Shown here piece by piece: positions 18,106 to 60,411 of a DNA stretch of 64,000 nt. A program made the position numbers and the translations under genes. Source of the DNA: Antedon mediterranea (taxonomy: Eukaryota > Animalia > Echinodermata). Below the pieces are notes generated by a model that was given only the letters and a program-made list of their open reading frames with translations, ran no database searches and was not told the origin of the DNA. The stretch is taken from the NCBI RefSeq assembly GCF_964355755.1, contig NC_092674.1, positions 12,462,001 to 12,526,000 of the forward strand. The letters run 5' to 3'. The first letter of the stretch is position 1. Each line of letters starts with the position of its first letter.

Positions 18106-18204
18106 ATTCTCCTGAAGATCCAATTTAGCACCAGCCTTGAGCAAAATAGTGCAAACATCTGTGTGGCCCTTTAGTGCAGCCAAATATAAAGGTGACGCTC
18201 CATT
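18106..18204 (-). CDS. Ankyrin-repeat exon A: NGASPLYLAALKGHTDVCTILLKAGAKLDLQEN
   Basis: 99 bp; tttcAG acceptor; GTaagt donor; phase 0; ankyrin consensus G-x-S/T-P-L-x-x-A-A-x-x-G-H...LL..GA. Confidence 0.9.
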
Positions 18205-20304
18205 CTGAAACATTACAAACATTATGTTATAGTAGTTTTTACTCTAAACAAAGTATTATAATATTTTCCTGCAATCAATACGATGTAATCAATTAAAAAT
18301 AACGTTATAGATTTAAATAATGCTACATTGTATTGACGAGAGGTTCTGCCAATAGAGGGCTAAAATCACGAATTATTCATTCATTCATTCATTCATTCAA
18401 TCTTTTATTTCGGAAACTCTGGTCCATAGAAAGTAAATTACATATAAATGAAATAAATAAAATAAACAAAATTACTACTACTCATCTCAGGATGGCATTC
18501 CATCTGGAGAGCATCTTCGACTTAACTAAGACATTGCTTATAATCGTTGAGATTAAAATATGCACGATATTGTTTACGTGTTTTAATATTATGTATGATT
18601 TTCAGACATAATTTTAAAAGCTTGCATGAAAATAGTGTAGTTTTCTCATCTTCTAAATCAAATGTCAACTGTATACGTGAAGCATACTTTTATTGGATTG
18701 TTATTGTATTGTTTTAACAATACACTACATTTCAGTTCCAACTTATCCTTACATACATAAACTTGGTTCTTAATTGATATGATAATCCTTATTGCAGCTT
18801 ATAGGCTATGGGGCATGGCCTTCTATCGTTTCATTTCGTGATCCCCTATCGGGGGGGAGAATAAAATTGCTATGACAATTATAACAAAAATATAGATAAC
18901 CTTAAACTGGCCGGTCCCGCTTGTAAATTTTACGCGTCAACGAAATATGTTTGTTTTTATATGTATTTTATTGCGATATAGAAGATTTTTGTAGGTCAGT
19001 ACAGGTCGCACAATTGACCAATCAAAAAATTTGTCTTTTAACTCATGGAGCTGTGCAACAGTAACTGTCCAATCAGATTCCCTTACACAGCGGGATACGG
19101 CTACTAGACGATCGTAAACAAACATGTGTTGTTCTTCTGGAGCGCGGAGCAGGAAGATGTCATCTTCTGATGATCAAAAACGTTGTTATTGACACAATAC
19201 ATCTAATTCTGGGACAATATTAACATTCACAGAAACCAAATGGAAAACTTTTTTAATGTGTACAAAAAGTTGGTGCAATCTAAGCGGCAATCAAAAGGAG
19301 TTTTGTAGCCGCAAATCCTTTTGAAAATATTGAGAGGAGCTTACCAATACTTGTTACCAATTCCTGGCGACGCTGGATGTCATAAAAAGATGCTATCAAT
19401 ATTTCACTGATTGTAGCAAACAAAGGCGAGCAGTAAAATATGAAATAGAGGATGTTAATTCATCCAACAATGAAGAAGGTAAATTCTATTTGTTTTAATG
19501 ATAGGTCTAGCCTAGGCTAGGCCCCTACTAGGCCTAGTAATTAGTTCATATCATACTGCCTTGCTAAAAAAAGCCTAGCTAGGTAGGTTGGCGGTGGGTA
19601 GCCTACAAAGTTTATTTTTTTAATATGTATTAAGCCTACGTAGAGTAGGCTAGGCCTAGTATATAATTTTTTTAAAATATCTGGGCCAACAAAAAATGAA
19701 TCCATAATTACAATATGAATTAGGCCTAGCTAGGGTGGCCCCAGTATTATTGTGTAGTGGACCTAGTTTGATGGTACCTCCATCTTGGGAAAAAACATTT
19801 GCATTTTATTATTCAATGTGGTAATGCATGCAAACCTTGGCAAGTAGCCTCAGGCAAGGACAGAATGGACCAACCTGATGCTTTATGTTGTTATTTGAGA
19901 CATATTATTTGAATTCTTGTACTGCAATATTAAATAGTGTATAGATGATACTGAACTGATTATATTATTATATTTATTACACAAACATTTAGAATCATAA
20001 ATATTATTAGTATTCTTTTTTTTTACAGAAGAATTTCAAGGATTAGAGTCAACAGAAGAGTTACTAAACGAAGGAGAGTTCTGCGATCACATGTAGCAAT
20101 TACACAAACTGCATAAAAAATGCTGAACGAAGTCGAAGAGTAGCCATCGGCTCACAAACAATTAAAATACCAAAAGCCGAACAGCAAATTCCAGAACAGT
20201 TGAAAACATTTTTATCTGCTAATCAAGTTCTTCTTTCAAATATGAAGCATGTGTGAAGCAGATCACCTCAAGGGAATAAATGTATTCATAACATCATCAT
20301 TATT

Positions 20305-21171
20305 ATGCCATTCTATTTCAGAATCAAATGGAAAAGTTTTAATCAAGAAGAGGCAGACACCAGAATGTTTCTGTATGCGAAGTATGCTGCACACCATGGT
20401 GGTAAAGATATTGTTACAATCAGCCCTGACACTGATGATGTTTTTATTATTGGATTGGAATTTTGCAAAAGTCTGCATGGCTCTCACCTATATTTCAATA
20501 CTGGAAAAGATGCTAATCTCCGAACAATTCATCTGCAGGCTATTCAGGAACATATTGGAAATGATGTTTCAAATGCATTAATTAGACTACATTGCTTCAC
20601 AGGATGCGATTCAGTCAGAGCTTTTTTTGGGAACGGTAAAGTGAAGGCAATGAAACTCGTAATGGAAAACTCTAATTTATGCATTCTTTTCATTGGGCAA
20701 TTCTACCAGCAAACTTTCAGATGAATTACTTTGTGATCTAGAAACATTTGTATGTAGGCTGTACAGTATTGTCACAAGAACCAATCTGTCAATGAAGTAA
20801 GGTATGCAATGTTCTCAATGAATGTAAGAGCTGAAAATATGATGCCACACAATAAGGATACTGTATATAAACATATTCAGCATGCCAATTCTCAAGCTTC
20901 AATTCACAAAGCTAGTTTTATTCAACAACAAAATGCTCCATCTCCTGTTGGAAATGGGTGGAAGATGGCCGATAATAAACTCGTAATTGACTGGATGGAG
21001 AAGCAACCTGCTCTACACAGCATTCTCGAATTGTCATCCTGGTCATGTAAAAAGTCAAAATGCAATGAAGGGGTTGCAAATGAAAAATGCTGTGTATCCT
21101 TAGGATTCTCTTGTACAGAATTATGCTCGTGCAAAAACTGTAACAATCTTCTTCATACATCAGATGTTTGA
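20305..21171 (+). pseudogene. Academ protein C-terminal remnant (XPG/PIN-like nuclease plus Cys-rich zinc finger)
   Basis: EEADTRM, SPDTD, LHCFTGCDSV.AFFG.GK, P.PVGNGWK, SCKKSKC...CTELCSCKNC; broken across ORFs. Confidence 0.75.
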
Positions 21172-21303
21172 AATTGATGGAGATGATAGCGATGATGAGG
21201 AAGAGTTTGAGCAGGAAGAACTTTTTAGTGTTACAGTAGTTTAAGTGTAATTTATGGTTTACAAATGTTCATTTTACTTGGTCTACATGATTTTAATGTA
21301 ATA

Positions 21304-22268: not shown

Positions 22269-23557
22269 ATGAGCGCAGTAACATCTGACAAACGGCGGGC
22301 TTTGATAACTGCTGTAAAATCAACAGGGGCTAAATTTGAACCAGAACACTGGGTTAACCCGATATCAATCACGAAAGATGCCCTGGATTATTTATCATCA
22401 TGTTTTAAATCAGATGTAATTAGAATTCTATAGACCTCAGCTTCATCCCTATTTCTAGATAAATGCCATTCATACTCATTGAGAGATGGCTGGTTTATTT
22501 AGCAGAAACCAGACATCGTTTAACTTGCATCAGCTTAAACTTATTATAGCTTGACCAAAATTATGCAAAAATCCCACCTCCTCTTGGGAGTTTTCTGCCG
22601 CTAGTTTAGGCCTCCTCCAAGGCAATTATTGTTATTGATTATACGAATTACGTAATTAGTTAGCTTAGCAATGATCTATGCCTCAAAAGCTCGGACGAGT
22701 TAGAATTTGAGGGGAAAGGTCATAGGTCAAGGTCACAACTAACAAAAAACTATTTTACTGCCTAGAGACCACAGTTTTTATCCAATTCTCACCAAATTTA
22801 GCCACAATGATCAATGATCCATCATATAATTGTGGTTACATTTTGAAGAGTCAGGGTCAAAGATCAAGGTCCACAAAAAACAAAAAAAAAAGAAATAAAA
22901 AAAAATAATAAAAAAAAACCTCGACCTCAACTGTGAGAGGCTGGATACATAACCATTACACCAAACTTTCATCCACAACTTTGCAGTGTGCAGTTAGCCT
23001 ATTTACACTTAGAACTAAGAAAAAAAAAGTATATATATATATATATATATTTTCGAGAGACATTTTATGTGGGGGAATTTTACAGTAGGCGGATGTTTGT
23101 ACTCTCAGAGTACCCTCTAGTTGGAATTGTTATTTGTAATAGTACAGGACTAATTTAAATGCAGAAGCTCACAGTAAGTTTACGTCGTTGTACCATTGTT
23201 TCCTGATAATTGGAATGTAATCAGTTTTTATTATAGTGATTTCTGATTTGACAAATTAAATTTGTCAAAATCAGAAATCACTATAATGTATGACTGATGA
23301 GTTCAAGTTCAATCTGAAAACATCACTGATGACACAAATTATAGCTAAACATTAATTATTATTGTCAACATAATCGAGTTGAAGGTATTGCTGTATATGT
23401 ACATAAATATCATAGTATAGCATACTGACAAAAAACGTTACATAAGGTAATTAGTCTATTTTCGTATACTAAGCGACATACATTTTCTATACCTGACATA
23501 ATTATTTGAAGTATGTATATCCCAATATATTTGGTTGGTGTCATAATATGCGATTTT
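22269..23557 (+). repeat. Large inverted repeat, left arm (1289 bp)
   Basis: Reverse complement of 24311-25598; the only difference noticed is one homopolymer length. Confidence 0.95.
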
Positions 23558-24310
23558 AAACTCACATAAACATGCAATGAAATCCTCGTTATTGAAAAAA
23601 AAAATCTATTTATTAATATTAATATATTGTTTTCTCTTTTTACTTGGTTAGATAAAACATGTTACTAAGAAACGGCAAACATTCTAGTTTAAATTCTTTA
23701 TGTTAAGTACCCACAGATTGCACTATTTTCTGTAAGCTTAAATAGATTCTCTTTTCGTTCATGTGTTGGGAATAGAAAATATTTCTCTTCAAACAGTTTC
23801 CAAAATATTGGTACACAACAATGAAAAAAAAATGTGTGTTACGTTCTCGGTCACGGTCACTAGAACCATTCTTGCGACTGAGTTGAACTTCGAAAATGCC
23901 AGTCAGATGTAAAAACAAGTTAAAAAGAATAAATTAGCAATTGTCACTACATACTCATCCTTCAAAACTAGCCGCCATCAAGCAAACACTCAATGCACAC
24001 TCATTCAGATAAACAAAAAAATGCACTTATTTTCGGATGATTTTTTTCTTACTTAATTTGTGTATTGTTTTATATTAATGTACATCGTTTTTTTTTTTAA
24101 TATTATGACTCCAATTATATATTGGAAATAAGGATTTGATCGAGTCGACCTTAGATTTGCAAGTAACAGAGAAGCATTTCTCTTGTCCGTTGTCAGATGG
24201 TTATTGAATCTTTGTTGTTGATTTCTCTAATACTTATATGTAATTAACCGCTTTACGTCACTCTGTGTAGTAGGTACTACATACTCATCCTTCAAAACTG
24301 TCAGGTATAG

Positions 24311-25598
24311 AAAATCGCATATTATGACACCAACCAAATATATTGGGATATACATACTTCAAATAATTATGTCAGGTATAGAAAATGTATGTCGCTTAGT
24401 ATACGAAAATAGACTAATTACCTTATGTAACGTTTTTTGTCAGTATGCTATACTATGATATTTATGTACATATACAGCAATACCTTCAACTCGATTATGT
24501 TGACAATAATAATTAATGTTTAGCTATAATTTGTGTCATCAGTGATGTTTTCAGATTGAACTTGAACTCATCAGTCATACATTATAGTGATTTCTGATTT
24601 TGACAAATTTAATTTGTCAAATCAGAAATCACTATAATAAAAACTGATTACATTCCAATTATCAGGAAACAATGGTACAACGACGTAAACTTACTGTGAG
24701 CTTCTGCATTTAAATTAGTCCTGTACTATTACAAATAACAATTCCAACTAGAGGGTACTCTGAGAGTACAAACATCCGCCTACTGTAAAATTCCCCCACA
24801 TAAAATGTCTCTCGAAAATATATATATATATATATATACTTTTTTTTTCTTAGTTCTAAGTGTAAATAGGCTAACTGCACACTGCAAAGTTGTGGATGAA
24901 AGTTTGGTGTAATGGTTATGTATCCAGCCTCTCACAGTTGAGGTCGAGGTTTTTTTTTATTATTTTTTTTTATTTCTTTTTTTTTGTTTTTTGTGGACCT
25001 TGATCTTTGACCCTGACTCTTCAAAATGTAACCACAATTATATGATGGATCATTGATCATTGTGGCTAAATTTGGTGAGAATTGGATAAAAACTGTGGTC
25101 TCTAGGCAGTAAAATAGTTTTTTGTTAGTTGTGACCTTGACCTATGACCTTTCCCCTCAAATTCTAACTCGTCCGAGCTTTTGAGGCATAGATCATTGCT
25201 AAGCTAACTAATTACGTAATTCGTATAATCAATAACAATAATTGCCTTGGAGGAGGCCTAAACTAGCGGCAGAAAACTCCCAAGAGGAGGTGGGATTTTT
25301 GCATAATTTTGGTCAAGCTATAATAAGTTTAAGCTGATGCAAGTTAAACGATGTCTGGTTTCTGCTAAATAAACCAGCCATCTCTCAATGAGTATGAATG
25401 GCATTTATCTAGAAATAGGGATGAAGCTGAGGTCTATAGAATTCTAATTACATCTGATTTAAAACATGATGATAAATAATCCAGGGCATCTTTCGTGATT
25501 GATATCGGGTTAACCCAGTGTTCTGGTTCAAATTTAGCCCCTGTTGATTTTACAGCAGTTATCAAAGCCCGCCGTTTGTCAGATGTTACTGCGCTCAT
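24311..25598 (-). repeat. Large inverted repeat, right arm (1288 bp)
   Basis: Reverse complement of 22269-23557; 753-bp spacer between the arms. Confidence 0.95.
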
Positions 25599-26165: not shown

Positions 26166-28124
26166 TACCCAAAAAGAAAATTAGAATATTTAAAAATAAT
26201 AGGCCTTGGCTCACAAAAGATGTAAGAAAGGAATTACTTAAGAATTATATTGCATCCAAAAACAAATGCAACGAGATGGAAAAAAAAAGATTAAAAAATG
26301 TGTAAATAAGAAAATCAAAGCATGTAAAAAAGAATATGGAGAAAAAATTGAGAACAAATTCAAGTGCCGGGACACCCGTCAGGCCTGGAATAGAGTTAGG
26401 AAAATTACAGGTATGGGGAAAAGAATAATGAAATTGAACACAGTTTTAAACCAAATGATTTTAATATTTTTTATTCTAGATTTGATGAAATAAATTTTAA
26501 ATGTGAAATGACTGCATCTGCTAAAGGGTTTAAAAATGAAATGAATGATAAAAGTGCAATAAAAATTGATTTAGATGATGTTAAGAAATATATGGAAAGG
26601 GTCAATGTTAGTAAAGCAAAGGGTCCGGACGGTGTATCAGGGCGTTTGATTAGATCATGTGCCTCTCAGCTTTCACCAATAATAAGCCAGCTTTTCCAGT
26701 GTTCACTGAACACGGGGGTGGTAACTGATCTATGGAAGGTCTTTGAGATTATACCTGTCCCGAAAATGTGTAACCCTAAAATCATTAACGACTTCAGACC
26801 AGTGGCATTAACATCTATTCTAATGAAGATCCTTGAGAAAATTGTTAGAAGTCAACTAATGTCTGAATGTAGTGATTTTATGGATAATAACCAATTTGCA
26901 TATCAATGTAATAGAGGGGTCGATGATGCTATTATAAACTTGTTAGACCTGGTGGTTTCACATTTAGATAAGAAGGGGACCTATGCTCGAGGGCTATTCA
27001 TAGACTTTTCATCTGCATTTAATTTGATGCAGCCTCATATTTTAATGAATAAAATGTCTGAATGGAAGGTTAATCTTTACCTTGCTCTATGGGTTGGTGA
27101 TTTTCTTACAAATTGGCTACAGTATGTTAAAGTTGGTAAATCTATCTCAGAGATTAGAAGGATCAACACTGGTGCACCCCAGGGTCTGTCACCAAGTTTA
27201 TTTACAATATATACTAGTGAATGTCGATCTTCATGTAGCATGTGTCATATCAAATACGCAGATGACATGGTACTGATTGGTCTATTGAAAACTGCTGACG
27301 ATCATGTGTATAAAGCTGAATATGTTAAATTAATGTCATGGTGCAATGACAATTACCTTAAGATTAATTTTAATAAAACTAAAGAAATTATATGGGATTT
27401 TAGGAAAAAGAAAAATGAAAAAAGTTATCTGATAGTTAATGATCAGACAATTGAACGTGTTCATGAAACCAAATATCTTGGTACACATATTAATGATCAA
27501 CTTAGTTTTGAAAAAAATACGGCCGAGATAATTAAGAAAGGTCACCAAAGGTTATATTTCCTAAGAAAGCTAAATAAATTTAATGTTAGCTGTGGTACTC
27601 TAAAATTATTCTATGAAACAGTTATTCAATCAGTGCTAGTTATCTCTTTTATTGCTTGGTTCGGTAATTTAAATGAAACACACAAGAAAGGTCTCATTAG
27701 AATTACTAAGATAGCATCAAATATAATTGGTTGTACGGTTAATGATTTAAAATATCTTCATGAAAAACAGGTCCTAAGTAAATTAAGTAAAATTTTAGAA
27801 GAAAAGAAACATCCAATACATATGAGATTTTTAAGAACAAGTCAGGCCGGTTACGGGCTCCTAGAGCTGATACGTTAAGAAACCGACTGTCTTTTGTATC
27901 AAATTCAACTCATATTTTTAACTCAAAGATTGTTAGATCATAATAGCGAACATGCAATATATATTTTAAAGTTTTACTGTTGATGGATGTTTTAATTAAT
28001 GTTTTTAAATTGTAAAGTTGTCCTATGTATGATGTAAATATGAATGTTTTACCATATTTTTATGTCAATGTACAATTTAGTATATATGGAACGAATAAAG
28101 ATTGATTTGATTTGATTTGATTTG
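26166..28124 (+). mobile_element. 5'-truncated Rex1/Babar-like LINE
   Basis: RT ORF; (GATTT)n tail; candidate TSD ATCAT (26161-26165, 28125-28129); empty site visible in the paralog at ~63155 (gacaatcatcagtg). Confidence 0.8.
26508..27878 (+). pseudogene. LINE reverse transcriptase (Rex1/Babar-like), lacking the endonuclease
   Basis: KAKGPDG, DFRPVALTS, QFAY, FIDFSSAFN, GAPQG, KYADD, QRLYFLRKL. Confidence 0.85.
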
Positions 28125-31100: not shown

Positions 31101-31199
31101 TTTGGCCTGAAGATCCAATTTAGCACCTTCCTTGAGCAAAATAGTGCAAACATCTGTGTGGCCGTTTTGTGCAGCCAAATGTAAAGGTGACCACCCATT
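31101..31199 (-). CDS. Ankyrin-repeat exon B: NGWSPLHLAAQNGHTDVCTILLKEGAKLDLQAK
   Basis: 99 bp; tttcAG / GTaagt; phase 0. Confidence 0.92.
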
Positions 31200-33090: not shown

Positions 33091-33188
33091 TTTGGTCTGA
33101 AGATCCAATTGAGCACCTTCCTTGAGCAAAATGGAGCAAACATCTGTGTGGCCGTTTTGTACAGCCACATAAAAGGTGACGCTCCAAT
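33091..33188 (-). pseudogene. Ankyrin-repeat pseudo-exon C
   Basis: 98 bp (1-bp deletion after GASP) and donor mutated GTaag to CTaag; otherwise YVAVQNGHTDVCSILLKEGAQLDLQTK. Confidence 0.88.
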
Positions 33189-33923: not shown

Positions 33924-34639
33924 CATTTGCAGAGAATAGGGCATTGCTTACCAACAGAACGATCCACCTACAAACAAGAATGATGTTTCTTAATGGTCTA
34001 GTTAGGAGTAGACTCACCTATGGTTGCCATGCTTGGAGGGCAACAGGAAGTGAAATGTCCAAACTTAGCACAACATACAAAACCTTCCTAAGAAGAATGC
34101 TAGTGAATGGCTTTCAAAGAGTCTGCCCACCAAACCATGTAGACATATCCTCAGATGATGAAACAGATGAAAACTATATAGACTGGCGTTACGTAATTGA
34201 AAATGACGATCTCTACAAAATTACTGGCTGTCAACCGCTAGAAGAATATGTCTACAAGCAACAATTCAACTGGATCGGACATGTAATTAGAAAAGAAAAT
34301 GAAGATCCTACAAAAATTCTTACTTTTCACACAACACAAAGTAAACGAAGAGGTCGGAAGATACCATCAGTACTTGATAGAGTTGTACAACAAAGTCAAC
34401 TTACTAGATGCAACTTCATTAGAGCCTGCTTCAACAGAAATTTATAATTCCCAGCAATGTTTTAACTGTATATATGAACTGTTTTATAAGTTGTTTTGTG
34501 ACTGTGTAATTTGGTAGTAGTCACTCTCATACTGTAGGCCTACATTTAAAAGTAACACATCCAAATGCCAACTTCAAGTCAATGGCTACCAGATGTCTCT
34601 GTGAGACGGTTATTTGAACCAGTACCAGTACCAGTACCA
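33924..34639 (+). mobile_element. Short 5'-truncated copy of the RTE-like LINE at 57108-60096
   Basis: Near identical to 59391-60104 (three substitutions noticed); (CCAGTA)n tail. Confidence 0.92.
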
Positions 34640-34975
34640 TTTAGGATCACTACGGTAGTGATTTATTTGCAATCTCAACTTCAGATTGGGTACCGTACCG
34701 TATTTCATGATTTAGGTGATTTTCCTATTTTTGTTTGTTACTTTGGGTGGAATATACTGTATGGTACTGCAAATAAGTCAATCTATAATAATAACCCACT
34801 ACTCTAATATTAACCCATGGGGGTTACTCTTCAAGTCACAAAAACTTATGATACAGCTGTATTTTGAAAATAAGGAGATAATGCAGCTTGATCTTGGGAG
34901 TGGGGTAGGATTGAGTGTTTTTGAGTTCAAACAAATTTGTTTATTCGTACTGTTTTATTATTTTGCTATGAGTTG

Positions 34976-37900
34976 CGTCACTTTACTGATATCGTTTTTC
35001 TTTGTAAGATTTTCAATTCTAATATAATTAATACTGACAATTTTTTTAACTAGATGGTACGCTCGCTTCGCTCGCGTACCATCTAGGTCGTGCCCACAGA
35101 TGGTTCTCGAATACATAATAATTTCAGCGTTAAAAAACTGGCGATTTCAAATGTACGTACCGCAGGACAAATACATGTCGTTTACAGGAACGAATAAATA
35201 GACAATGTGATTTATGTACTCAACTAAAAATAGCACCCTGGGAATTAATTCCGAAAGAGAAACTTGTCACAAAATGAGACCAATTGTTTAAGTCAAATTT
35301 AAACAAACTTAATTTGTGTTTTGTATGTAACATTAGGGTTGAGGGATGGGGAAGAGGATGGGTGGAAAGAAGAAAAATTTTTAAATATATTCTTTATCTA
35401 TTTAGTAAAGAAATATTAATTGTTTTCATGTTTTACAAATAATATACCACTAAACACAGAGTAAAACATTGCGATGTAATACTTTGTTGAAGCTATAACC
35501 GTCCAAGTCGATTGAAATAGTACAGTACATGTAACGATGTAACATCACTACGACAACGTGTATATATTTATATAATGTAAAACAATTTGTGAAAACCACC
35601 TCTATTTGGGGCAAATCATAAATTCGATTTAATCATCAATATATATTAAATTATCTAACTCAACTTAATTAGTAGGCCTAATGGTTTTCAATTGTTTCTT
35701 AGAGCCAATTCTTACTTAAGTTGGTTCCTACCCTACCCACCAAAGTTGTTCTGCGTTTAGGGCATGTGATGCACTGTAGGCCTATCCTCTACTGGATTTA
35801 CAACGCTACTCATGCCAGTGAGGGAAGGGTGATGATGTGGGTGGTTTAACTGCAATAATAAATATTTGTACATAAATATACGGCGACTGAAAACGCTAGC
35901 TCATTATCTGTTTAAAAAAAATGTATATCCAACCTCTGCAGCACAGATTGAAATAAAAATGGATCGAATTTCTGTTATGAGTATACAGTACTTGCCTTTA
36001 CGACGCCTGAAGGAATAGACGCTTGTGGAACAGAGATTGGAATGTTCCATTCATCGCAAATCAATACATTGGTAAAAACGTATATTAAATCTATCAAAAT
36101 AGCATTTTTAAATCGGACTGTCTTCAACATTATGATGCTGTACTCGAACTGTTCAACCGGTTTTCAGCTATTAAAAACAATTATCGTAGGAGGTGATAGG
36201 AAAATGCGAAGTGTCCTCGTATTATTGTGTGTGGGTATTTTTCAAATTGGACATCCATTAGACAGTGTATACCACGATCGGAAAACACCCCTATTTGGGG
36301 CAAATCGTTGAACCTAAATTCGTCAATAACTAATTATCGAATTCAATTTAATTAGTAAACAGGGTTATGTCAGGTGGTTAAAATCAGTACCGAAAGTACG
36401 AACCAACTTTACATACCATGGAGTAAACATTCTAGAAATAACGCGCGATTTACCGAATTTTGCCCTTACGTAAATTTATATAGATATTCGTAATCCAAAA
36501 CGTATTACTCGTAGCTCTTCTTCTGTTGGTACTCTTTTTGATATTCGTCGCTGCAGAACTGAATCTTCTTTTCAATCATATATCCCACGTGTTACCAGAA
36601 TTTGGAATAACTTACCCAGTGAAATCCGCAACTTAATAAGCCAAATTACTTAATTATCTCAATATTTATTCTTTAAAAAATGTTGATATTGAAAAAGTGT
36701 GTAGTTGGTCGCTTTCTTGTAGATGCTTTAATTGTAGAACGTAAATTACTTATTTTTCTTATATGTTTCTGTTCTGGTTTGACCAACTAGCATAGGTGTT
36801 TAGCACCTGTTTGGTCTTTCCGTGCCTCCTTTTATAATTGTTTTGTCTTCTTTTTTATGTATATGGCAGAAATTGAATAAATAAATAAATAAACACGGTA
36901 TGTATTCAATTATCTCAACACAAATACCAATTGAAATACAATTGGTTTCTGTGATTAGTTCTTTAGTTCTTTTAAATATGGCTACTATAATCTTTCCATC
37001 TCTTCTGAAACCTGTTTTCAATACAATCAATTGCCTGTTGTAGATACAAACAAGGAAAACGCTTATTCATCATTACTAACAAGTAAGTTATCAATGATAG
37101 TTATTTCTTCAGGTTGATGTACTTACATTTCCATCACATAACCCTTACTTTCTATCACGTAAAGTATTAAGAGTACACGCCTGTTCATGTGCGCCATATT
37201 ATTGCTCATATATTCTTTACTAAAATAATTTTGCAAGCACGTTAATGTATTGATTCAACATTACTTTGTTTATCAATATTGGGGTTGTATATTCATATGA
37301 AGTAATACTATTAACAAGGTCAACACTCGGGAAACCAAATTTTCTGGAAAAAAGCAATGGATTTGATACTGCATTACATTTTTTTTCTGTTATTAACCAT
37401 AATAGGAAGTAAAAATAAAATGTCAACTATTGCTATATTTTGGGGTTAAAGGTCACCAAATTCATGGTTTCTCACAGTTTCCATGGTTACAAGACACTAT
37501 TAACATTTACCAAACATAACATTATTAGTGGATTTATATTTAATATGTCTTCTTCCTAAACAATATTAAAAAGTTTGGATTGCCAAATTTACCATTTTTG
37601 AACTTTTGGCACACTTTGAATTGATTCTGTCCCACTTTGTCATGGGCCAAGAGCTATTCCTTTATTATTCTTCTTTTTTTTTTAAAAATCGGTAATCGTG
37701 ACCCTTTATAACTTGTTGCATATGATGTGCCAGTGTGCTACGTTCTAGACATTGGAATAGTAAACAACTAATAGTAAAAAGAACTTGAAACGAATTGTAA
37801 ACGTCTGTCCAGCATTAGAGATAATGTTAACATTCTCTTCTGGAAAGAGGTAATAGATGTATGGAGTAATTTTATTTCTATTCATTATCCAAAGTCTGTT

Positions 37901-39700
37901 GACGAGCTAATACGAATGCAAGTTTGGAATAATGAAGTAATAAGAATAGGCAACAAATGTATAAGATATGGAAACTGGGAAAAAGCAGGTATTCTGTTTG
38001 TTAATGATTTGTTTAACAGCAATGGGCAATTTATGAATAAAAAAGAAGTCGAAGATACCTATGGAATTAAGATAAACAGGCTTCTGATGGAAAAAAAATA
38101 ACAATTTAATGATATGTGAAATAAAAAAAAAATTTTTGCCAGATATTCCATTTCATATAAAAAGTACTCTTTCAACAAAGAAAGGGATGTCGTATTTGTT
38201 ATGATGTTTTAAATAACTCAATGTTTAAATAATGGAAAGCACAAAAGAAATGGGCAGAGAACAAATTTGTATTCAATAACGAACAATTGAAAGCTATCTA
38301 CCTAGCTCTCACCATAATATACGTGTACAATGAATATTGTTTTAATATATTTTCAATATAAAATTGTAAACAGAATAATTGCAACAAATGAACAATTATT
38401 TAAAATGAATATAAAAGAAACTTCAATGTGCTCATTTAGAGATGGTAAAATTGAAACCAATTAGCATTTGTTCTGTAATTGTGCAATAGTAAAAAGGATA
38501 TGGAACCTTCTCCAGGAAAAAATTTTAGAAAAAACTGTAGTGCAATTTATTTTTAGTAAAGAGAGCATATTTTTCGGATACCAAGATGCACATCAGTTTT
38601 TTAATTTAAAAGCCATTAATGCAATTATTCTTATTGTAAAATCATTTATTTATAAATGTAAACTAGTTAAACGAATGCCAAATATCAAAATGGTTATGAA
38701 CGAGTTAAAAAGGTTTTATGAAACGGAAAAATGTATTTATCATCAGAATTTCCAGGACAGTATTTTAAATAGAAAATGGATAAAATTAGAAGCATTTATA
38801 AATCAGATGGATATCTTTGTTGTTTTTGTTTGATTTTTTATTTGATTATATTTTTCCTTTGTAATGTATTATATGATGAAAAAAATAAATAAATAAATAA
38901 ATTAAAAAATAGTAAACAACCAAATAAAAGTGACATTGGGCAGATTTGTAAATGGTAGTTGCGAATGAATTGCCGTTTCTTACAAAGGGAGCATACCGCC
39001 TCTCTAAACTACGTATTTTGGTACCTGTATGTGTATAGCATGGCCCCCGGTTGTCGACGCGTGAGCTGGGCCAACTTCTAAATATATTTACTCTATAAAT
39101 ATTTCTTACAGAGGGACACCGCCAGATTAAGTGCGTCCTATCACTAGTAAGTAACTTGATTCAGATTTCTAACTACAGGACATATATTGACACGTAAACC
39201 ACAATGAAAATTAGTTAGTTGATTAGTTGACGTTTTACTGTAATATTAAATATATTTGTTACTAGAAATTAGTTTGATAAAATATATTCTACAAATTAGT
39301 AGGCATAATCGTTTTCCACTAATAAATTAAGGGGGTGGGGGGTGGGGGACACGTGTTTGTTTATGAGTGAGAATCAATAAGGCATTTAATTAAAATGCAG
39401 ACCATCTTAAATTACATTGACACGTTCCGATAAATATATTCTCATCATCAGAACTGTAATCAAAGCCTAGAGTACTTGTATACGTACAAAGTTGCGTTTA
39501 AATGAGTCAATAATTAGCATGAGAATAGATTTATCGAAACATGTCACGTAATTTTAAGACGGTCCACATTTTCATTAAATGCCTTATGATATTATTGATT
39601 ATCAATCGTAATTTGGTGGTATTATAAATGATGTGCCTGTTTATGTACAGTGAAAGAGCTTATTTTAGTATCCTATAGTAATATATTTTCTATATAAGAG
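34976..39700 (+). repeat. Segmental duplication block, copy 2 (interrupted by a Helitron)
   Basis: Colinear with 7565-11325. Confidence 0.9.
35050..36484 (-). mobile_element. Complete non-autonomous Helitron (1435 bp)
   Basis: Minus strand A|TCTATA...CTAG|T, 3' hairpin and no TSD; empty site at 7631-7645 (tttaa|tattcgt). Confidence 0.85.
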
Positions 39701-40355: not shown

Positions 40356-43300
40356 TTCCCAGTGAAATCCACAACTTAAATATTTCTGTTAGTTCTTTTA
40401 ATAAGCCAAATTACTTAATTATCTCAATATTTATTCTTTAAATAATGTTGATATTGAAAAAGTGTCTAGTTGGTCGCTTTCTTGTAGATGCTTTAATTGT
40501 AGAACGTAAATTATTAATTTTTCTTATATGTTTCTGTTCTGGTTTGACCAACTAGCAAAGGTGTTTAGCACCTGTTTGGTCTTTCCGTGCCTCCTTTTAT
40601 AATTGTTTTGTCTTCTTTTTATGTATATGGCAGAAATTGAATAAATAAATAAATAAACACGGTATGTATTCAATTATCTCAACACAAATACCAATTTAAA
40701 TGCAATGGTTTCTGTGATTAGTTCTTTAGTTCTTTTAAATATGTCTACTATAATCTTTCCATCTCTTCTGAAAACTGTTTTCAATACAATCAATTGCCTG
40801 TTGTAGATACAAACAAGGAAAACGCTTATTCATCATTACTAACAAGTAAGTTATCAATGCTAGTTATTTCTTCAGGTTGATGTACTTACATTTCCATCAC
40901 ATAACCCTTACTTTCTATCACGTAAAGTATTAAGAGTACACGCCGGTTCATGTGCGCCATATTATTGCTCATATAATCTTTACTAAAATAATTTTGCAAG
41001 CACGTTAATGTATTGATTCAACATTACTTTGTTTATCAATATTGGGGTTGTATATTCATATGAAGTAATAATATTAACAAGGTCAACACTCGGGAAACCA
41101 CATTTTCTGGAAAAAATCAATGGATTTGATACTGCATGACATTTTTTTTCTGTTATTAACCATAATAGGAAGTAAAAATAAAATGTCAACTATTGCTATA
41201 TGTTGGGGTTAAAGGTCACCAAATACAGGTCAAAAATACAAAAAAAAATCATATTTTTAAAATAAAACCATTATAATAGTTTAGATTCACGGTGATTCTA
41301 GAAACAGCAGCGAATTTATCAAAACTGTTGTTTTTGCTCTTTTAAATTGAAATTGCATGGTTTCTCCCAGTTTCCATTGTTAACAAGACACTATTAAAAT
41401 TTACCAAACATAACATTATTAGTGGATTTATATTTAATATGTCTTCTTCCTAAACAATACTAAAAATTTTGGATTGCCAAATTTACCATTTTTGAACTTT
41501 TGGCACACTTTGAATTGATTCTGTCCCACTGTGCCATGGGCCAGGAGCTATTCCTTTATTATTCTATTTTTTTTTAAATCGGTAATCGTGATCCTTTATA
41601 ACTTGTTGCATATAATGTGCCAGCGTGCTACGTTCTAGACATTGGAATAGTAAACAACTAATAGTAAAAATAACTTGAAACGAATTGTAAACGTCTATCC
41701 AGCATTAGAGATAATCTTAAAATTCTCTTCTGGAAAGAGGTAATAGATGTATGGAGTTATTTTATTTCTCTTCATTATCCAAAGTCTGTTGACGATCTAT
41801 TACGAATGCAAATTTGGAATAATGAAGTAATAAGAATAGGCAACGAATGTATAAGATATGGACATTGGGAAAAAGCAGGTATTCTGTTTGTTAATGATTT
41901 GTTTAACAGCAATGGGCAATTTATGAACAAAAAAGAAGTCGAAGATACATATGGAATTAAGATAAATTATATAAAATTAATAGGATTAAGGAGGCTTCTT
42001 ATGGAAAAATTTAACAATTTAATGATATGGGAAATAAAAAAAACTGTTTTGCCATATATTCCATTTCATATAAAAAGTACTCTTTCAACAAAGAAAGGGA
42101 TGTCGTATTTTTTATGATGTTTTAAATAACTCAATGTTTAAATCATGGAAAGCACAAAAGAAATGGGCAGAGAATAAATTTGTATTCAATAACGAACAAT
42201 TGAAAACAATCTACCTAGATCCACATACGTGTATAATGCATATTGTTTTAATATATTTTCAATATAAAATTGTAAACAGAATAATTGCAACAAATGAACA
42301 ATTATTTAAAATTAATATAAAAGAAACTTCAATGTGCTCATTTAGAGATGGTAAAATTGAAACCATTTTGCATTTGTTCTGTAATTGTCGAATAGTAAAA
42401 AGGATATGGAACCTCCTCCAGGAAAAAAATATCAGAAAAAACTTGAGCGCATTTATTTTTAGTAAAGAGAGCTTTATTTTCGGATACCAAGATGCGCATC
42501 AGTTTTATAATTTAAAAGTCATTAATGCAATTATTCTAATTGTAAAATCATTTATTTATAGTTAAATGTAAGCCAACTATCAAAATGGTTATGAACGAGT
42601 TAAAAAGGTTTTATGAAACGGAAAAATGTATTTATCATCAGAATTTCCAGGACAGTATTTTAAATAGCAAATGGATAAAATTAGAAGCAGTTATAAATCA
42701 AATATGAAATTGTTAGAGATTAGAATAATTTTTATGAACCTTTATTTAATTTGTGAGATGGATATCTTTGTTGTTTTTTGTTTAATTTTTATTTTTTATT
42801 TGATTATGTTTTTCCTTTGTAATGTATTATAAGATGGAAAAAAAAGAAGTAAACAACCAAATAAAAGTGAAATTGGGTAGACTTGTAAATGGTAGTTGCG
42901 AATTAATTGCCATTTCTTACAAAGGGAGCATACCGCCTCTCGAAACTACGTATTTTGGTACCTGGATGTGTATAGCATGGCCTCCGGATGTCTACGCATG
43001 AGCTGGACCAACTTCTAAATATATTTACTCTATAAATATTTCTTACAGAGGGACACCGCCAGATTAAGTGCGTCCTATCACTAGTAAGTAACTTGATTCT
43101 GATTTCTAACTACAGGACAGATATTGACGCGTAAACCACAAAGAAAATGAGTTTGTGAATTAGTAGACGTTTTACTGTAATATTAAATATATTTGTTACT
43201 AAAAATTAGTTTGATAAAATATATTCTACAAAATTAGTAGGCCTAATCGTTTTACCCTAATAAATTAAGGGATGGGGGGTGGGGGCACGTGTTTGTTTAT

Positions 43301-44610
43301 GAGTGAGAATCAATAAGGCATTTAGTTAAAATGCAGACCGTCTTAAATTACTGGACATGTTCCGATAAATATATTCTCATCATCAGAATTGTAATCAAAG
43401 CCTAGAATACTTGTATACGTACAAAGTTGCGTTTAAATGAGTCAATCATTAGCATGAGAATAGATTTATCGAAACATGTCACGTAATTTTAAGATGGTCC
43501 ACATTTTCATTAAATGCCTTATGATATTATTGATTATCAATCGTAATTTGGTGGTATTATACATGATGTGCCTGTTTCTATACAGTGAAAGAGCTTATTT
43601 TAGTATCCTATAGTAATATAGTTTCTATATAAGAGAATATGTTATTTCAAATCAAGTACAAAAGCCGACGATCCAAGCGAATTACATGTTTAAAAAAAAT
43701 CGGAAAACACTCATTTGTTATTTTCAAAACACATTGAAAATCGGCGCGGTCCGATGGCATTCGTGACTGGCGGAAAAACGCAACAAAAATGAAAAACGAA
43801 AATGGCATGTTGTGTTTTCTGTAGGCCTATACGGTAATTAGTTTCTCAGATACCACCGTTTACAGTAGTATAATTGGGTGTTTATTTCAAGCTCATATCA
43901 ACGGGCAAAGAAATCCTCGTTATTAAAAAAAACATATTTAAACTTATTCACTATAGTATATTTAAATTATCTACTTATTACTTTATTTATATATTGTTTT
44001 CTCTTTTTACTTGGTTAGATAAAACAAACGGAAAACATTCTAGTTGAAATTGTTTATATTAATTATATCCACAGATTGCACTATTTTCTTTATACTTAAT
44101 TAGGTAATCTTTTCGTACTGTTGGGAATTGATAAATATTTCAGTTCAATTATTTTCCAAAATAGTGGTACACAACAATGAAAGAAAACAACATTTTTGTT
44201 ACGTTCTTGTCATTAGAAATATTCTTGCGACTGAGGTGAACTTCGAAAATGCCGGTCAGATATAAAAAAAAACAGTTACAAGGAATAAATTAGCAATTGT
44301 CACTGCATACTCATCCATCAAACTAGCCTCCATCGAGAAAATATTTAATTCTATGAATCTTATGATGGTTAGTTTTATAGGAACAATAGTACTATTTTTA
44401 TTTGTTTTGGCAATTAATGCAATTAAAGCGTAATTAATTCGTCATATTCCATTTGGAATACTACGTCCTGTAAAATGACTATAGAATGTTCTGATTTGTT
44501 AATTTTTAAATTATATTATAATATACAGAATTATATATTATTTAAAATGTTCGGGTAGCTTCCATGCATGCGGCTTTTGGCCTTAATGGAAGTCCTTTTG
44601 TATATTTTTT
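40355..44610 (+). repeat. Segmental duplication block, copy 3 (contains the least-decayed Tx1-like fragment, 41806-42565)
   Basis: Colinear with 7765-12210. Confidence 0.9.
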
Positions 44611-45910
44611 CTTTTTTTACAGTATAATTTAATTTTGTTTAAACTACAGGCGTGGCCCGTGAAAAAAAAAAATCAAAGTATATGTATCGCCGTCAACGGC
44701 AAATATTGGAGCAGATCAAAAACTACATCAACCGGGAAATCACGAAATCAATGTTATACCGCGGACGATTGAAAATCTGCCGATGAAATCAGAAAGGTTG
44801 TTTTAACACCTTTTATAATATCTGCCTAAGAGAGAAATATTATTAAATCTACGTTTCGCGTATCTGAGATAGATAATGTAGGTATGCAAGGCGGAAATCT
44901 TTTTCCATTGTGCTCAAAAGTAACCATAATTTAAGTATAGATACACTAACATCGTGGAGCACATTTAGCTCGTAGTATCAGGTACGTGCACATAGCATCG
45001 CATTGGTAAGTCACAAACATATTAGTAAAATGCACAACACTGCAGTAATAGTTATTAAAACATAAAGGTTATGAAATAATCAAATTAAACAAATGTCTAT
45101 CCTTACACGTACGAAAAAAACACCAACAGTTATCTAACAACACGAATTCCTTACCTTCGCGCAAACACTGAAAGAACGAATGATTATTTATTATGCTTAA
45201 TTCTGGAATAGGTATGCACAATGTAAAACGCATAGCACCAACTCCTTGTCGGTTCTTACCCCAGCTGTTCCATTCGTCTAATATCTTAGAAAAGATAGTA
45301 TTAGTGTTTTTAATGTCTTATGTCATCGGTAGACTTTTAACAGTCAGCGGTAAAGTTACTTCCTAGTTCGTTATCACTTTGCGATTTCCGGGTTGCAATA
45401 GTCACAATAAAACCTCTGTACAAAATGCTTGCAGCTGTCCCACATGTGAACCTGGCATGTACATTTGATATACATTTGAGTCAAGATATTTCATGTTTCT
45501 CTCTTTAAACGTCAAAATGAACTACAGTAATATATTAATTATATTGTAGAATACTATGGTTTGGCTATTTAATAGTATTGTGACTTACAGGTAATAAATA
45601 GTTATTATTAATATAAAGTTATTACAAAGTGTGACATCAGTTGTTACAAAACCTTGGTTAATCTGACTTTCCAATGTCAAGATTAACCTTGACGAGGCAG
45701 CGGTGTTCCGAAACATGTGAGGGATACAACCGTGCGCAGTACTCGACAATTAATTAGTCATCCTCGCAACAAAGATGATCTGTAATATGACCCGCGATGT
45801 GGTTGCTTCATTTAGGTATGTTATTACTGGCACGCCCTTTAAATTGTAAAATTAAACACTTTTTAAATCACATTGAATTATATGGCACATTTTATGTGTG
45901 TAACACTTAC

Positions 45911-46009
45911 TTTGTCCTGAAGATCCAAATTAGCACCTTCCTTGAGCAAAATAGAGCAAACATCTGTGTGGCCGTTTCGTGCTGCCACATGCAAAGGTGA
46001 CACTCCATC
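45911..46009 (-). CDS. Ankyrin-repeat exon D: DGVSPLHVAARNGHTDVCSILLKEGANLDLQDK
   Basis: 99 bp; tttcAG / GTaagt; phase 0. Confidence 0.92.
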
Positions 46010-50735: not shown

Positions 50736-50834
50736 ATTGTTTGGAAGATCCAATTTAGCACCTGCCTTGAGAAAAATAGTGCAAGCATCTGTGTGGCCCT
50801 CTTGTGCAGCCACACATAAAGGTGACGATCCTTT
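50736..50834 (-). CDS. Ankyrin-repeat exon E: KGSSPLCVAAQEGHTDACTIFLKAGAKLDLPNN
   Basis: 99 bp; tttcAG / GTaagt; phase 0; visible within ORF 50670-50852. Confidence 0.88.
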
Positions 50835-56375: not shown

Positions 56376-57107
56376 GAGGAAATATATACGATTAACGATC
56401 CTCGCAGAAGTACAGTATAGTCATGTGATGCAGTTTCAACCAATCACGTTCATGTATTTACATATATAATATAATAAAAAATGATTTGTTCAATTTTAAT
56501 TAGTTCCCCTCAATGTATAGTCCTTTAAATGTTTCTATTATTATTATTTTTTCCATCTTTTCAGAAAATTGATTACACCACATTCAATTAGATTACTTAC
56601 TTGTCCATAACATTGAACCGTTACGTTCTATCACTTACACTATTAAAATTACACAACATGTGCGCCATAACATTGCTCATATATTCTATACCACAAATGA
56701 TTGTGCAAGCACGCGTATGTATTGATTCAACATTACTTTATTTACCAATTTGGAGTTGGTACAGTATATTCATGTGAAGTATATCTATGGTCAACATTCG
56801 GGACACCAAAGATTTCGGGATTTTACCGAGCTTGGCGTGTTAGTCAGCCGATTGCAAATTCCTACCAAAACGCAACGAACACCATCAAATGAAAACGAGA
56901 TAAAAATATACCAAAATACACTGTACATAATAAAAAGTATGGATGGAGTCGTTTAAGTGATACATATTGCACTTAGATGTTAAACAGATTACCAATTGAA
57001 TAATGATTTCTCACACAGTACCGTTTTACGGTCTTCATAAAATCAAGGCATTTTCGATTCTACACCTTTGGTTTTACTACACAGTTTTAATTTATAGTAA
57101 CCAGTAC

Positions 57108-60096
57108 GTTCAATGGAGTCAGCTAATGTTTATGAACGTCTAATGGCAATAGACGTCACAATAAAAAATTGTAAATTAAGAATTGTGTCTGCGTACTCTC
57201 CTACGGAATCCGGTTCAGAATCATCAAAGGATATTTTCTATGCAAAACTCTCCAAAGTAACAAGAGTCGAGAACAACACAAAACTCTTACTGATGGGAGA
57301 CTTTAATGCAACATCAACAATAACAACCAGAAAATCACTCTTTGATGGAAACCTACATAGATTTCAAGACACAGATGACATTAGTAACGACAATGGCACA
57401 AGACTCATCAACTACTGCTCTGACTTCAAGCTATGCATACTGAACACCTGGTTTGACCATCCAAACGTTCATCGGATCACTTGGCATAGCAACGATGGTG
57501 TTAAAAAGAAAATACTAGATTACAACATATGTGATCACTGGTTGAGGAAGTATGTTACTGACACAAGAGTCTATAACAACTATTATCTTTCGTCGGATCA
57601 TAGAATCCTTGTGAGTAATATGACAACACCAGCCAACAAAGCAGCCAGGTGGAAGAAGCATAAAAAGAAAAAACAGAGCAAGAGAGCCAACATGAGTAAA
57701 CTTAAAGATCGAGAAGTAAGAAATAATGTTAAAACGAAGATAGAAGAAGAAATTAATAAAATTACTTCTCCTGAAAAGACAACAACCACTACATCAACTG
57801 AGCGCTATACAACACTTATGACAGTGCTAAATAAGGCAGTTGAAGAAGTCCCGAAGAAAACAAGAAACCAAAATGCTCATCCCTGGGATGGTGATGAAAG
57901 ACTACAACAGCTTATAAAAGAAAGAAAGAATATTAACAAAAGCATAGTTACCTACAAAGAAGAGGAGATCAAGGCTATGCAGAAAGCAATTAAGATAAGG
58001 GTGAAGGAACTACGGAATGAATATTTGTATGAAGAAGCAAGCAAGTTAAATGAAGCCCACCAAAATAGAAAAATATTTGATTTATGGAGAAAAGCTAAGG
58101 AGCACGGTGATGTTATAAGAAAAGCACCAAAGCCTATAAAATGTCTTGGATTACGTGAACACTTTAAAGATCACTTTAATCCAGACCAATCTAGCCTTAA
58201 AATCCCAGATGAAATTAGCACACCTCCAGAATATATTATCAACCTGAGACAACCAGAATTTGAGATGGACAATGAACCTCCGTCCAAGAAAGAAATTATT
58301 GATGCAATCGGACATCTAAAAGGTCGCAAAGCTACCCTAGATGTCGCTTCTGAAATGTTGCAAGTCGCCACAGAGAACCCAGTATTCGTCGACCATGTAC
58401 ATAGACTGTTTGAGGAAATTTGGAGAACGAAAGAAGTACCAAGTGATTGGGGACTGTCCAAATTAACAACCATTTGGAAAAAAAAAGGCAGTCCACTTGA
58501 TCCATCAATGTATAGAGGAATATCAATTGGGTCTACATTTTCAAAGATACTTATGGTTATCATTCTTTCACGTTTTTCCATCTTTTATGAAAGTCAACTT
58601 CTACGCACACAGTTTGGATTCAGGTCCAACAGAGGGTGCAATGATGCTATATATGTAATCAAGCAGATCCAGGAAATTGCGTATCGCTCAAATCGCAAAC
58701 TCTATACATGCTTCATTGATTTAACAGCAGCATTCGACCATGTGAATCGTAATCTTCTTTTCCTAAGCGTTCGTAATAGGTTTCACTTAAACCAGTCTAC
58801 TACTATGATTGACATTATACAATCACTGTACAGCTCAACGAAAGCATACCTTGCTGACGACGATCCGAGTGATGATAAGTTCGAAACATCTTCTGGGGTG
58901 CGACAGGGTGGTATTGAGAGTACCAGCATGTTTAACCAATATTTTGATTACGTTATTAGAGTGTTCAAACAACGCTGTAAAGATGCTAGTTTGGATGGCC
59001 TAATGATACAATACCTAATTCCTATTGAAGCTACAAATCGTGCTCAAAGATGTAAAGCACCATCAAGGGGCATCTATGACGACTTTGAAAGTGGCTATGC
59101 TGACGACTTTGCTGTAAGCTCCTGGTCACAAGAAGAACTGCAAACCATTGTGAACATCTTGAATAAAGTTTGTCTGGAATTTGGCCTAAGAATTAGTGCC
59201 CCCAAAACAGAAACCATTATATGGAACTGGAAAGAGGAAGTTGAAGAATACCCAAGATGCATCATACAAATTGGCGGCGTACACATTAACAACGTAACAC
59301 ACTTTAGATACCTTGGTGTATGGGCTACCTACAATGATGTTCATATTGGAGATCAAGAAGTAAAATACAGAATCAATTCAGCCAAAGGAGCATTTGCAGA
59401 GAATAGGGCATTGCTTACCAACAGAACGATCCACCTACAAACAAGAATGATGTTTCTTAATGGTCTAGTTAGGAGTAGACTCACCTATGGTTGCCATGCT
59501 TGGAGGGCAACAGGAAGTGAAATGTCCAAACTTAGCACAACATACAAAACCTTCCTAAGAAGAATGCTAGTGAATGGCTTTCAAAGAGTCTGCCCACCAA
59601 ACCATGTAGACATATCCTCAGATGAAGAAACAGATGAAAACTATATAGACTGGCGTTACGTAATTGATAATGACGATCTCTACAAAATTACTGGCTGTCA
59701 ACCGCTAGAAGAATATGTCTACAAGCAACAATTCAACTGGATCGGACATGTAATTAGAAAAGAAAATGAAGATCCTACAAAAATTCTTACTTTTCACACA
59801 ACACAAAGTAAACGAAGAGGTCGGAAGATACCATCAGTACTTGATAGAGTTGTACAACAAAGTCAACTTACTAGATGCAACTTCATTAGAGCCTGCTTCA
59901 ACAGAAATTTGTAATTCCCAGCAATGTTTTAACTGTATATATGAACTGTTTTATAAGTTGTTTTGTGACTGTGTAATTTGGTAGTAGTCACTCTCATACT
60001 GTAGGCCTACATTTAAAAGTAACACATCCAAATGCCAACTTCAAGTCAATGGCTACCAGATGTCTCTGTGAGACGGTTATTTGAACCAGTACCAGT
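57108..60096 (+). mobile_element. RTE-like LINE, slightly 5'-truncated, young
   Basis: Uninterrupted APE-RT ORF; (CCAGTA)n tail; candidate TSD ACCAGTAC (57100-57107, 60097-60104). Confidence 0.88.
57113..59914 (+). CDS. LINE ORF2: partial AP endonuclease plus reverse transcriptase
   Basis: AYSPT, MGDFNA, LDY, SDH; YRGISI, QFGFR, FIDLTAAFDHV, GVRQG, YADD, FRYLG, WIGHVIR; the N-terminal APE motifs are missing. Confidence 0.9.
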   Translation: MESANVYERLMAIDVTIKNCKLRIVSAYSPTESGSESSKDIFYAKLSKVTRVENNTKLLLMGDFNATSTITTRKSLFDGNLHRFQDTDDISNDNGTRLINYCSDFKLCILNTWFDHPNVHRITWHSNDGVKKKILDYNICDHWLRKYVTDTRVYNNYYLSSDHRILVSNMTTPANKAARWKKHKKKKQSKRANMSKLKDREVRNNVKTKIEEEINKITSPEKTTTTTSTERYTTLMTVLNKAVEEVPKKTRNQNAHPWDGDERLQQLIKERKNINKSIVTYKEEEIKAMQKAIKIRVKELRNEYLYEEASKLNEAHQNRKIFDLWRKAKEHGDVIRKAPKPIKCLGLREHFKDHFNPDQSSLKIPDEISTPPEYIINLRQPEFEMDNEPPSKKEIIDAIGHLKGRKATLDVASEMLQVATENPVFVDHVHRLFEEIWRTKEVPSDWGLSKLTTIWKKKGSPLDPSMYRGISIGSTFSKILMVIILSRFSIFYESQLLRTQFGFRSNRGCNDAIYVIKQIQEIAYRSNRKLYTCFIDLTAAFDHVNRNLLFLSVRNRFHLNQSTTMIDIIQSLYSSTKAYLADDDPSDDKFETSSGVRQGGIESTSMFNQYFDYVIRVFKQRCKDASLDGLMIQYLIPIEATNRAQRCKAPSRGIYDDFESGYADDFAVSSWSQEELQTIVNILNKVCLEFGLRISAPKTETIIWNWKEEVEEYPRCIIQIGGVHINNVTHFRYLGVWATYNDVHIGDQEVKYRINSAKGAFAENRALLTNRTIHLQTRMMFLNGLVRSRLTYGCHAWRATGSEMSKLSTTYKTFLRRMLVNGFQRVCPPNHVDISSDEETDENYIDWRYVIDNDDLYKITGCQPLEEYVYKQQFNWIGHVIRKENEDPTKILTFHTTQSKRRGRKIPSVLDRVVQQSQLTRCNFIRACFNRNL

Positions 60097-60312
60097 ACCA
60101 GTACAATAATAGTGTAAATATCAACGATCAGTGTGTTTCTAACAACAAAGGCTAACTTTTTCATGGGATTTACAACGACGTCTTAAGTGCTAGGCATATT
60201 TTAGGTATGTTATTACCGGTTCGCCCTTTAAATTTGAAAATTTAATCATTTGTTTTAATCACACTGAATTATATATATAGCACCCCTTATTAACAATGTT
60301 TGTAACACTTAC

Positions 60313-60411
60313 ATTGGTTGTAAGATCCAAATTAGCACCTGCCTTGAGCAAAATAGTGCAAATATCTGTGTGGCCCTTACTTGCAGCAGAATGCAAAGGT
60401 GTCCATCCATT
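60313..60411 (-). CDS. Ankyrin-repeat exon F: NGWTPLHSAASKGHTDICTILLKAGANLDLTTN
   Basis: 99 bp; tttcAG / GTaagt; phase 0. Confidence 0.92.

Follow-up and report, generated by a model that had tools for sequence, protein, structure and literature searches.

The minus strand of the window, the whole 64,000-nt stretch of Antedon mediterranea DNA analyzed here, carries six paralogous ankyrin units, identified by scanning all six frames for the motif and by searching with profiles. An nhmmer search of the window returns six matches with E values between 2e-50 and 6e-43, widely separated from the next match (E 2.8), and the array is therefore not a product of chance; the same search finds no seventh copy in the window and places none of the six significant matches on the plus strand, i.e., there is no inverted repeat exon within the window. 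The units and the related intron DNA around them are as follows:

60313..60411, minus strand: e1, intact 99-nt phase-0 ankyrin exon of a distinct subtype (nhmmer, Pfam Ank)
50736..50834, minus strand: e2, intact 99-nt phase-0 ankyrin exon (nhmmer, Pfam Ank)
45911..46009, minus strand: e3, intact 99-nt phase-0 ankyrin exon (nhmmer, Pfam Ank)
33091..33188, minus strand: dead copy, 98 nt, with a frameshifting one-base deletion, donor CT and an intact acceptor
31101..31199, minus strand: e4, intact 99-nt phase-0 ankyrin exon (nhmmer, Pfam Ank)
18106..18204, minus strand: e5, intact 99-nt phase-0 ankyrin exon, a possible mosaic (nhmmer, Pfam Ank)
62786..64000, no strand given: intron DNA like that downstream of e3, e4 and e5 (self-blastn)
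7628..12921, no strand given: intron blocks copied from other array units, matching 36473-44614 and 62832-63252 (self-blastn)

A preliminary description of this DNA had reported six 33-residue exons, five of them with an intact donor and in phase 0. The five are as described: e1-e5 are each 99 nt long, open, in phase 0 and followed by the donor GTAAGT, every one encodes a single ankyrin repeat on a symmetric exon, and all pass Pfam Ank (PF00023) at 25.7-43.6 bits against a cut-off of 21.1. The sixth unit shares the tttcAG acceptor that precedes all six, but at 98 nt it is frameshifted and its donor reads CT. This one inactivated copy among six units (33188-33091) lies between the intact exons e3 and e4; its skipping is predicted, and is required if the gene works. 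The window repeats share 20-26 of 33 residues in pairwise comparisons, and the exon alignment reproduces the variable columns listed earlier. The scaffold, previously called nearly fixed, is looser than that: columns 4, 17, 19, 21, 24 and 27 vary as well.

The introns from e1 to e5, counted via the dead copy, measure 9478, 4726, 12722, 1891 and 12896 nt. Self-comparison of the window reveals that the intron flanks of the units are mutually homologous, and thus the duplicated unit is an exon plus intron. At the right edge, 63399-64000 matches 44596-45203, the DNA 0.7-1.3 kb downstream of e3, at 85% (self-blastn); because of this resemblance to e3 downstream DNA, a further exon is expected beyond the window, and the sequence predicts it about 0.7 kb past the edge. 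In 7628..12921, neither nhmmer nor self-comparison detects an exon.

Of 11 long non-exon frames scanned, six have no Pfam match; four long frames and a zf-RVT piece are retrotransposons. A young Ty3/gypsy-type LTR retrotransposon occupies 1069-7159, with LTRs 99.5% identical over 403 nt and a 5-bp target duplication; RT-RNaseH comes after its SCAN-protease-integrase frame, in a different frame, and integrase ahead of RT is the Gmr1-like order. A LINE with a 937-aa endonuclease-RT frame lies at 57101-59911, and its 3' end recurs at 33924-34640 as a 717-nt copy with 99.4% identity, which lies upstream of the dead exon at a distance of 0.7 kb; another LINE RT frame of 492 aa (26400-27875) interrupts the e4-e5 intron. 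A 3-4 kb block with decayed LINE (zf-RVT) remnants occurs three times (7628-11321, 36473-39713 and 40355-43647), the copies being 88-98% identical and two of them in tandem. A large palindrome at 22269-25598, with 1289-nt arms that are 99.9% identical and 753 nt apart, is either a foldback element or an assembly artefact.

The closest relatives of the array were sought among 284 proteins of at least 84 aa, fetched by three word-seeded searches, each with a limited length range, two of which used the best 120 of 1599 and the best 120 of 277 matches. Among the matches listed, the profile search yielded generic ankyrins and one outlier, P0108 (XP_071950050), from Antedon mediterranea itself; P0108 as a query added P0176 (XP_071950764), from the same species, and eight longer crinoid Roc proteins. 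The best repeats of P0108 and P0176 score 68-73 bits against the exon profile and the next of the 284 proteins 45.8 bits, so that the window-type repeat occurs only in these two among the matches listed. Both proteins open with MFV[IM]FQ, the translated acceptor tract preceding the window exons, which implies that the two models begin inside an intron and that the exon-intron boundary is common to them and to the window. They thus share with the window the repeat type and the acceptor flank; they differ in having just three and two such repeats and in stopping early in Roc, whereas the window has at least five intact exons over 42 kb.

Pfam and alignment give the order three repeats, cap and Roc start for P0108, and two repeats, cap, Death and Roc start for P0176, with the Death domain of the latter at 42 bits (cut-off 22.6). 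The Roc scores, 25.4 bits in P0108 and 16.9 bits in P0176, are under the Pfam cut-off of 27 because both models stop early: they are truncated automatic models, neither of which extends to COR. Their P-loop region can be aligned with the eight longer crinoid Roc proteins, among which COR-A matches in seven, above the cut-off in five. The domains of the crinoid ROCO family are Roc, COR-A, Death and DED, and a Pfam scan of the ten crinoid proteins finds no kinase domain. The ten, all annotated as "uncharacterized", are:

Antedon mediterranea: P0108, P0176, P0121, P0125, P0126, P0129, P0130, P0141
Anneissia japonica: P0122, P0128

The eight longer proteins constitute an uncharacterized crinoid expansion of kinase-less Roc-COR with Death, DED or ankyrin. 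The repeats of Anneissia P0122 are ordinary and divergent, unlike those of the window array.

The flanks had been proposed as the place to look for attached domains. A tblastn search of the window with the cap, Death, Roc and COR parts matched nothing but the ankyrin exons and a single piece of LINE, and the 18 kb of window downstream of e5 hold no cap, Death, Roc or COR exon; it is the relatives that supply the Roc start and, in one of them, a Death domain. With no cap, Roc or COR exon in the window, the ROCO link rests on homology, by which the array gene is probably a crinoid ROCO and the array likely encodes the sensor at the N-terminal end of its protein. The preliminary analogy to the Ectocarpus ROCO genes has turned out closer than foreseen, since both of the nearest relatives have the start of a Roc domain and one of them has a Death domain too.

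Six sequencing runs match part of the window, none recorded as RNA; four (X1, X3, X5 and X6) were examined. X5 is putative RNA, which is a guess, and it also contains intron contigs; X6, labelled as a second organism, contains the same exon type including its flanks. In X5, one contig jumps back by exactly 99 nt at a joint on e4, with no such joint among the rows listed for X1, X3 and X6. Two between-joint rows and seven of the 12 listed loose-end rows of X5 pass in frame from the end of one exon straight into the start of an exon, among them PNN|KGS, QRN|NGV, PNN|DG, QAN|DGA, QGN|N and PRN|DG; the rows were decoded by hand, and several may share contigs. By contrast, none of the 36 loose-end rows listed for X1, X3 and X6 holds an exon-exon junction, and in four of them an exon runs on into donor and intron. 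Two X5 junctions fit window neighbors: PNN|DG matches e2 to e3 at 14 of 14 letters, and an e5-like start behind the e4 end matches at 29 of 30. PRN|DG is a junction present in P0108. The remaining junctions do not join window neighbors and may stem from other loci, alleles or skipping; an e2-e3 joint is not among the 15 of 96 joint rows listed, and no contig spanning two exons was seen in the runs examined. An intronless DNA copy as the origin of the X5 junctions is disfavored, as two runs of organism A (one sample, X5 being another) have no such joint; the many copies suggested by summed contig depth were set aside, as depth gives no copy number. The earlier expectation of in-frame splicing has support at the level of the family: its exons are very likely joined head to tail in frame, and the X5 junctions need not be those of this locus.

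The variable columns had been assigned to the beta-turn and helix 1, the ligand-contact surface of DARPins, and the gene termed DARPin-like. A structure predicted for P0176 from its single sequence has pLDDT 78-90 over residues 11-80, with helices at repeat columns 5-12 and 15-23; its top structural matches are DARPins, at an rmsd of about 2.5 A, for this relative and not for the window exons themselves. Since the model is unreliable past residue 98, the Death and Roc calls rest on Pfam and alignment. On this model, columns 7, 8, 11 and 12 are on helix 1 (columns 5-12), and columns 1, 3 and 31-33 are in the loop. The classic DARPin randomized set, positions 2, 3, 5, 13, 14 and 33, translates into exon columns 33, 1, 3, 11, 12 and 31. 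The designed-ankyrin consensus reads DxxGxTPLHxAAxNGH..., and in the corresponding library positions 2, 3, 5, 10, 13 and 33 are randomized, which are exon columns 33, 1, 3, 8, 11 and 31 (PMC4308713). The correspondence with designed libraries is therefore sound for columns 1, 3, 11, 12, 31 and 33, as well as for column 8, whose position PMC4308713 randomizes, and breaks down for column 32, which is Asp1, fixed in the designed consensus (PMC4308713).

With either face set, the mean pairwise difference among the window exons is 0.77 on the face versus 0.21 elsewhere, and only 473 of 1,107,568 six-column sets are as variable as the face; five Antedon repeats from P0108 and P0176 have the same face pattern (p 0.001-0.003). 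The DARPin-like pattern fits, but these positions show high entropy across natural ankyrins as a whole (PMC4308713), and designers chose them because they are variable there. Consequently, the pattern alone does not argue for selection; only a rate test does. A codon model with externally defined face columns gives omega 4.6-6.3 (p<=0.0013) for the face, a value inflated by silent sites that run at only 0.4-0.5 times the intron rate, and 0.8-1.1, not distinguishable from 1, for the scaffold. Since silent sites are slowed, 80 gap-free intron columns downstream of the exons served as the yardstick, on three topologies. Relative to intron DNA, the replacement rate is 2.5-3.3 times on the face (p 0.0002-0.007) and 0.4-0.5 times in the scaffold (p 0.002-0.02), and the silent rate in the intact exons is 0.4-0.5 times (p 0.02-0.06); these estimates come from five 33-codon sequences and custom code, on one tree despite likely recombination, and codon changes of several bases at once can make the face rate too high. 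The slow silent sites point to gene conversion or to splicing signals that lie within the exon. In the run contigs, 16 of 50 possible replacements are seen on seven face columns, against 11 of 166 elsewhere and five of 65 silent changes (face versus silent, p=0.0012), a tally of the 32 in-exon rows among 34 difference rows (two intron rows dropped) that overlaps the differences of the window and is not independent of them. The rapid diversification proposed earlier is upheld in that the variable columns lie on the face randomized in libraries and change faster than intron DNA; diversifying selection on the face is a good probability.

Repeats may have moved between genes. P0108 and P0176 are 82% identical in their first two repeats, 55% in their caps and 47% in their Roc starts. 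The e1 subtype is common to the window and both Antedon genes at 28-30 of 33 residues: e1 matches repeat 2 of P0176 at 28 of 33 and repeat 2 of P0108 at 30 of 33, differing from the latter solely at columns 1, 11 and 12. These sequence comparisons suggest homogenization or swapping of repeats between genes, although the automatic models may be wrongly stitched. Within the array, e5 combines an e4-like upstream flank with an exon and downstream flank of mixed e4/e2-like character and is possibly a mosaic; the max-chi test gives p<0.05 in 10 of up to 60 triplets, and its best value, p=0.004 for e5, is lost after correction.

The fast face might be illusory. Plain tandem duplication with constitutive splicing could produce an unconstrained face that looks fast through gene conversion and multi-base mutation, with no arms race, and it would explain why the same positions are high in entropy in ankyrins at large (PMC4308713) and why silent sites, as expected of conversion, evolve at 0.4-0.5 times the intron rate. 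Silent divergence, moreover, is raised at face codons (0.25-0.29 versus 0.09-0.10 at the other codons, with roughly 3-5 sites per pair), and the rate contrast comes from five sequences only. Yet unconstrained sites should not outpace introns, as the face does at 2.5-3.3 times; e1 and its P0108 counterpart differ only at three face columns; and the run-contig variants are likewise skewed to the face. We therefore consider an unconstrained face unlikely, and selection on the face is the better account of these rates.

Doubts about the gene as a whole concern its tail and its activity. The array could belong to a gene with a borrowed exon type and no Roc-COR, ending in ankyrin only or in a NACHT, kinase or other tail: the window contains no downstream domain exon by tblastn, and if repeats are as mobile between genes as they seem, the kind of repeat need not dictate the kind of tail. 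On the other side, both known carriers of the window-type repeat (two of two, among the matches listed for the 284 proteins) continue into a cap and a Roc P-loop, which makes a tail of another kind rather improbable. The array could also be decaying or detached, a pseudogene or an untranscribed exon reservoir full of transposons; one of the six copies is dead, recent LTR and LINE insertions sit in the introns, and the X5 junctions do not prove transcription of the window locus itself. Such decay is at odds with a frame and both splice sites kept in five of six copies, a scaffold replacement rate below that of introns and the two X5 junctions that fit window neighbors (e2 to e3 and e4 to an e5-like start); it has little probability, and the exons are in all likelihood functional.

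The reading preferred here, an array of in-frame ankyrin exons forming a ROCO sensor whose face evolves fast under selection for new specificities, is held at somewhat better than even chances as a whole. The protein would be an intracellular sensor-switch with an N-terminal solenoid of stackable repeats before a Roc-COR GTPase, in the order ankyrin repeats, cap, optional Death, Roc GTPase and predicted COR. In the germ line, exon-plus-intron units would be duplicated, lost and converted, so that repeat number and face keep changing; the units may come and go through unequal crossing-over and may be traded inside one ROCO gene or among several. Phase-0 symmetry would keep each such event in frame, any number or order of exons could fold into one solenoid, and failed copies would drop out through splice-site loss. 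Exchange would preserve a uniform, stackable scaffold even as the residues of the face diverge, the fast face reflecting selection that favors new ligand specificities. Ligand binding would switch the Roc-COR module, with the signal passed onward via death-fold domains. An immune or non-self role, suggested by analogy, has an even chance. A more far-reaching version is doubtful: tens of exchangeable ankyrin exons, combined by array-wide alternative splicing and swaps among ROCO genes, would make up combinatorial intracellular immune receptors, a natural DARPin library mounted on Roc-COR and death-fold domains, with annotation having missed the small, distant exons.

In the portions of the reports considered here (PMC3341825, PMC11378527), exon-per-repeat ROCO receptors under diversifying selection are known from brown algae, where LRRs form the repeats. 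If the preferred reading is true, a deuterostome ankyrin version would mean that the same design has arisen again with a different repeat; it would add a candidate class of intracellular receptors to echinoderm immunity and offer a natural data set on which ankyrin face positions selection tunes. In any case, the public gene models P0108 and P0176 look truncated. The literature listings searched, mostly of non-subscription papers, yielded no account of a ROCO array of ankyrin exons in crinoids or other animals.

Ankyrin repeats upstream of Roc-COR are familiar from animal DAPK1 and LRRK2, the former with a Death domain; these are conserved single-copy kinases with divergent repeats. The crinoid array resembles them in placing ankyrin repeats ahead of Roc-COR (in the window, by homology) and, as in DAPK1, in the association with Death, and departs from them in that the ten crinoid proteins scanned contain no kinase domain. 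Other relevant combinations, as far as the excerpted reports describe them, are ANK-ROCO proteins named in oomycetes and Gonium (PMC11378527) and, in Aplysia and sea anemones, Roc-COR linked with a TIR or a Death domain (PMC9334734, PMC5094078).

Like DARPins and the ANK-N5C library (PMC4308713), the window exons have a uniform scaffold and vary on the beta-turn and on helix 1; unlike them, they are natural, Asp1 (column 32) and His9 (column 7) vary where the designs are fixed, and their binding face is a predicted one (general background on DARPins is given, in the parts used here, by PMC8229355 and PMC8683736). In Podospora NLRs, according to the sections of PMC4986451 used here, ankyrin repeats that are almost identical to one another, and whose positively selected sites fall on the inner helix and hairpin, are attached to a P-loop switch, a combination to which the crinoid array is similar. 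There, however, the repeats are C-terminal to the NACHT domain, unlike the crinoid layout, and repeat-number polymorphism was measured. The same sections state that high internal repeat conservation, at an 85% threshold, characterizes 0.8% of metazoan ANK/TPR/WD repeats; the window repeats, with 20-26 of 33 residues identical, are under this threshold.

The closest parallel lies in the LRR-ROCO genes of the brown algae Ectocarpus and Saccharina, candidate immune receptors with shuffled single-repeat exons (PMC3341825, PMC11378527, in the portions considered). The two systems differ in several respects: the window is animal and its ankyrin exons are 99 nt in phase 0, whereas the algal LRR exons are 72 nt in phase 2 (PMC11378527); the window has no inverted repeat exons on the other strand; its introns span 2-13 kb and one relative has a Death domain, unlike the algal genes as described; and alternative splicing of repeat exons is a feature of the algal system, whereas the window is known from genomic exons and family-level X5 junctions. 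Common to both, within the same portions of the reports, are one repeat per equal-length exon, inactivated copies within introns (one of six units in the window), a fast-changing concave face (in the window, from five sequences), repeats placed before a Roc GTPase (in the window, by homology only) and, more tentatively for the crinoid genes, signs of exchange between genes. With its ROCO membership assigned by homology, the array is likely an animal, ankyrin-based version of the exon-shuffled ROCO receptors of brown algae.
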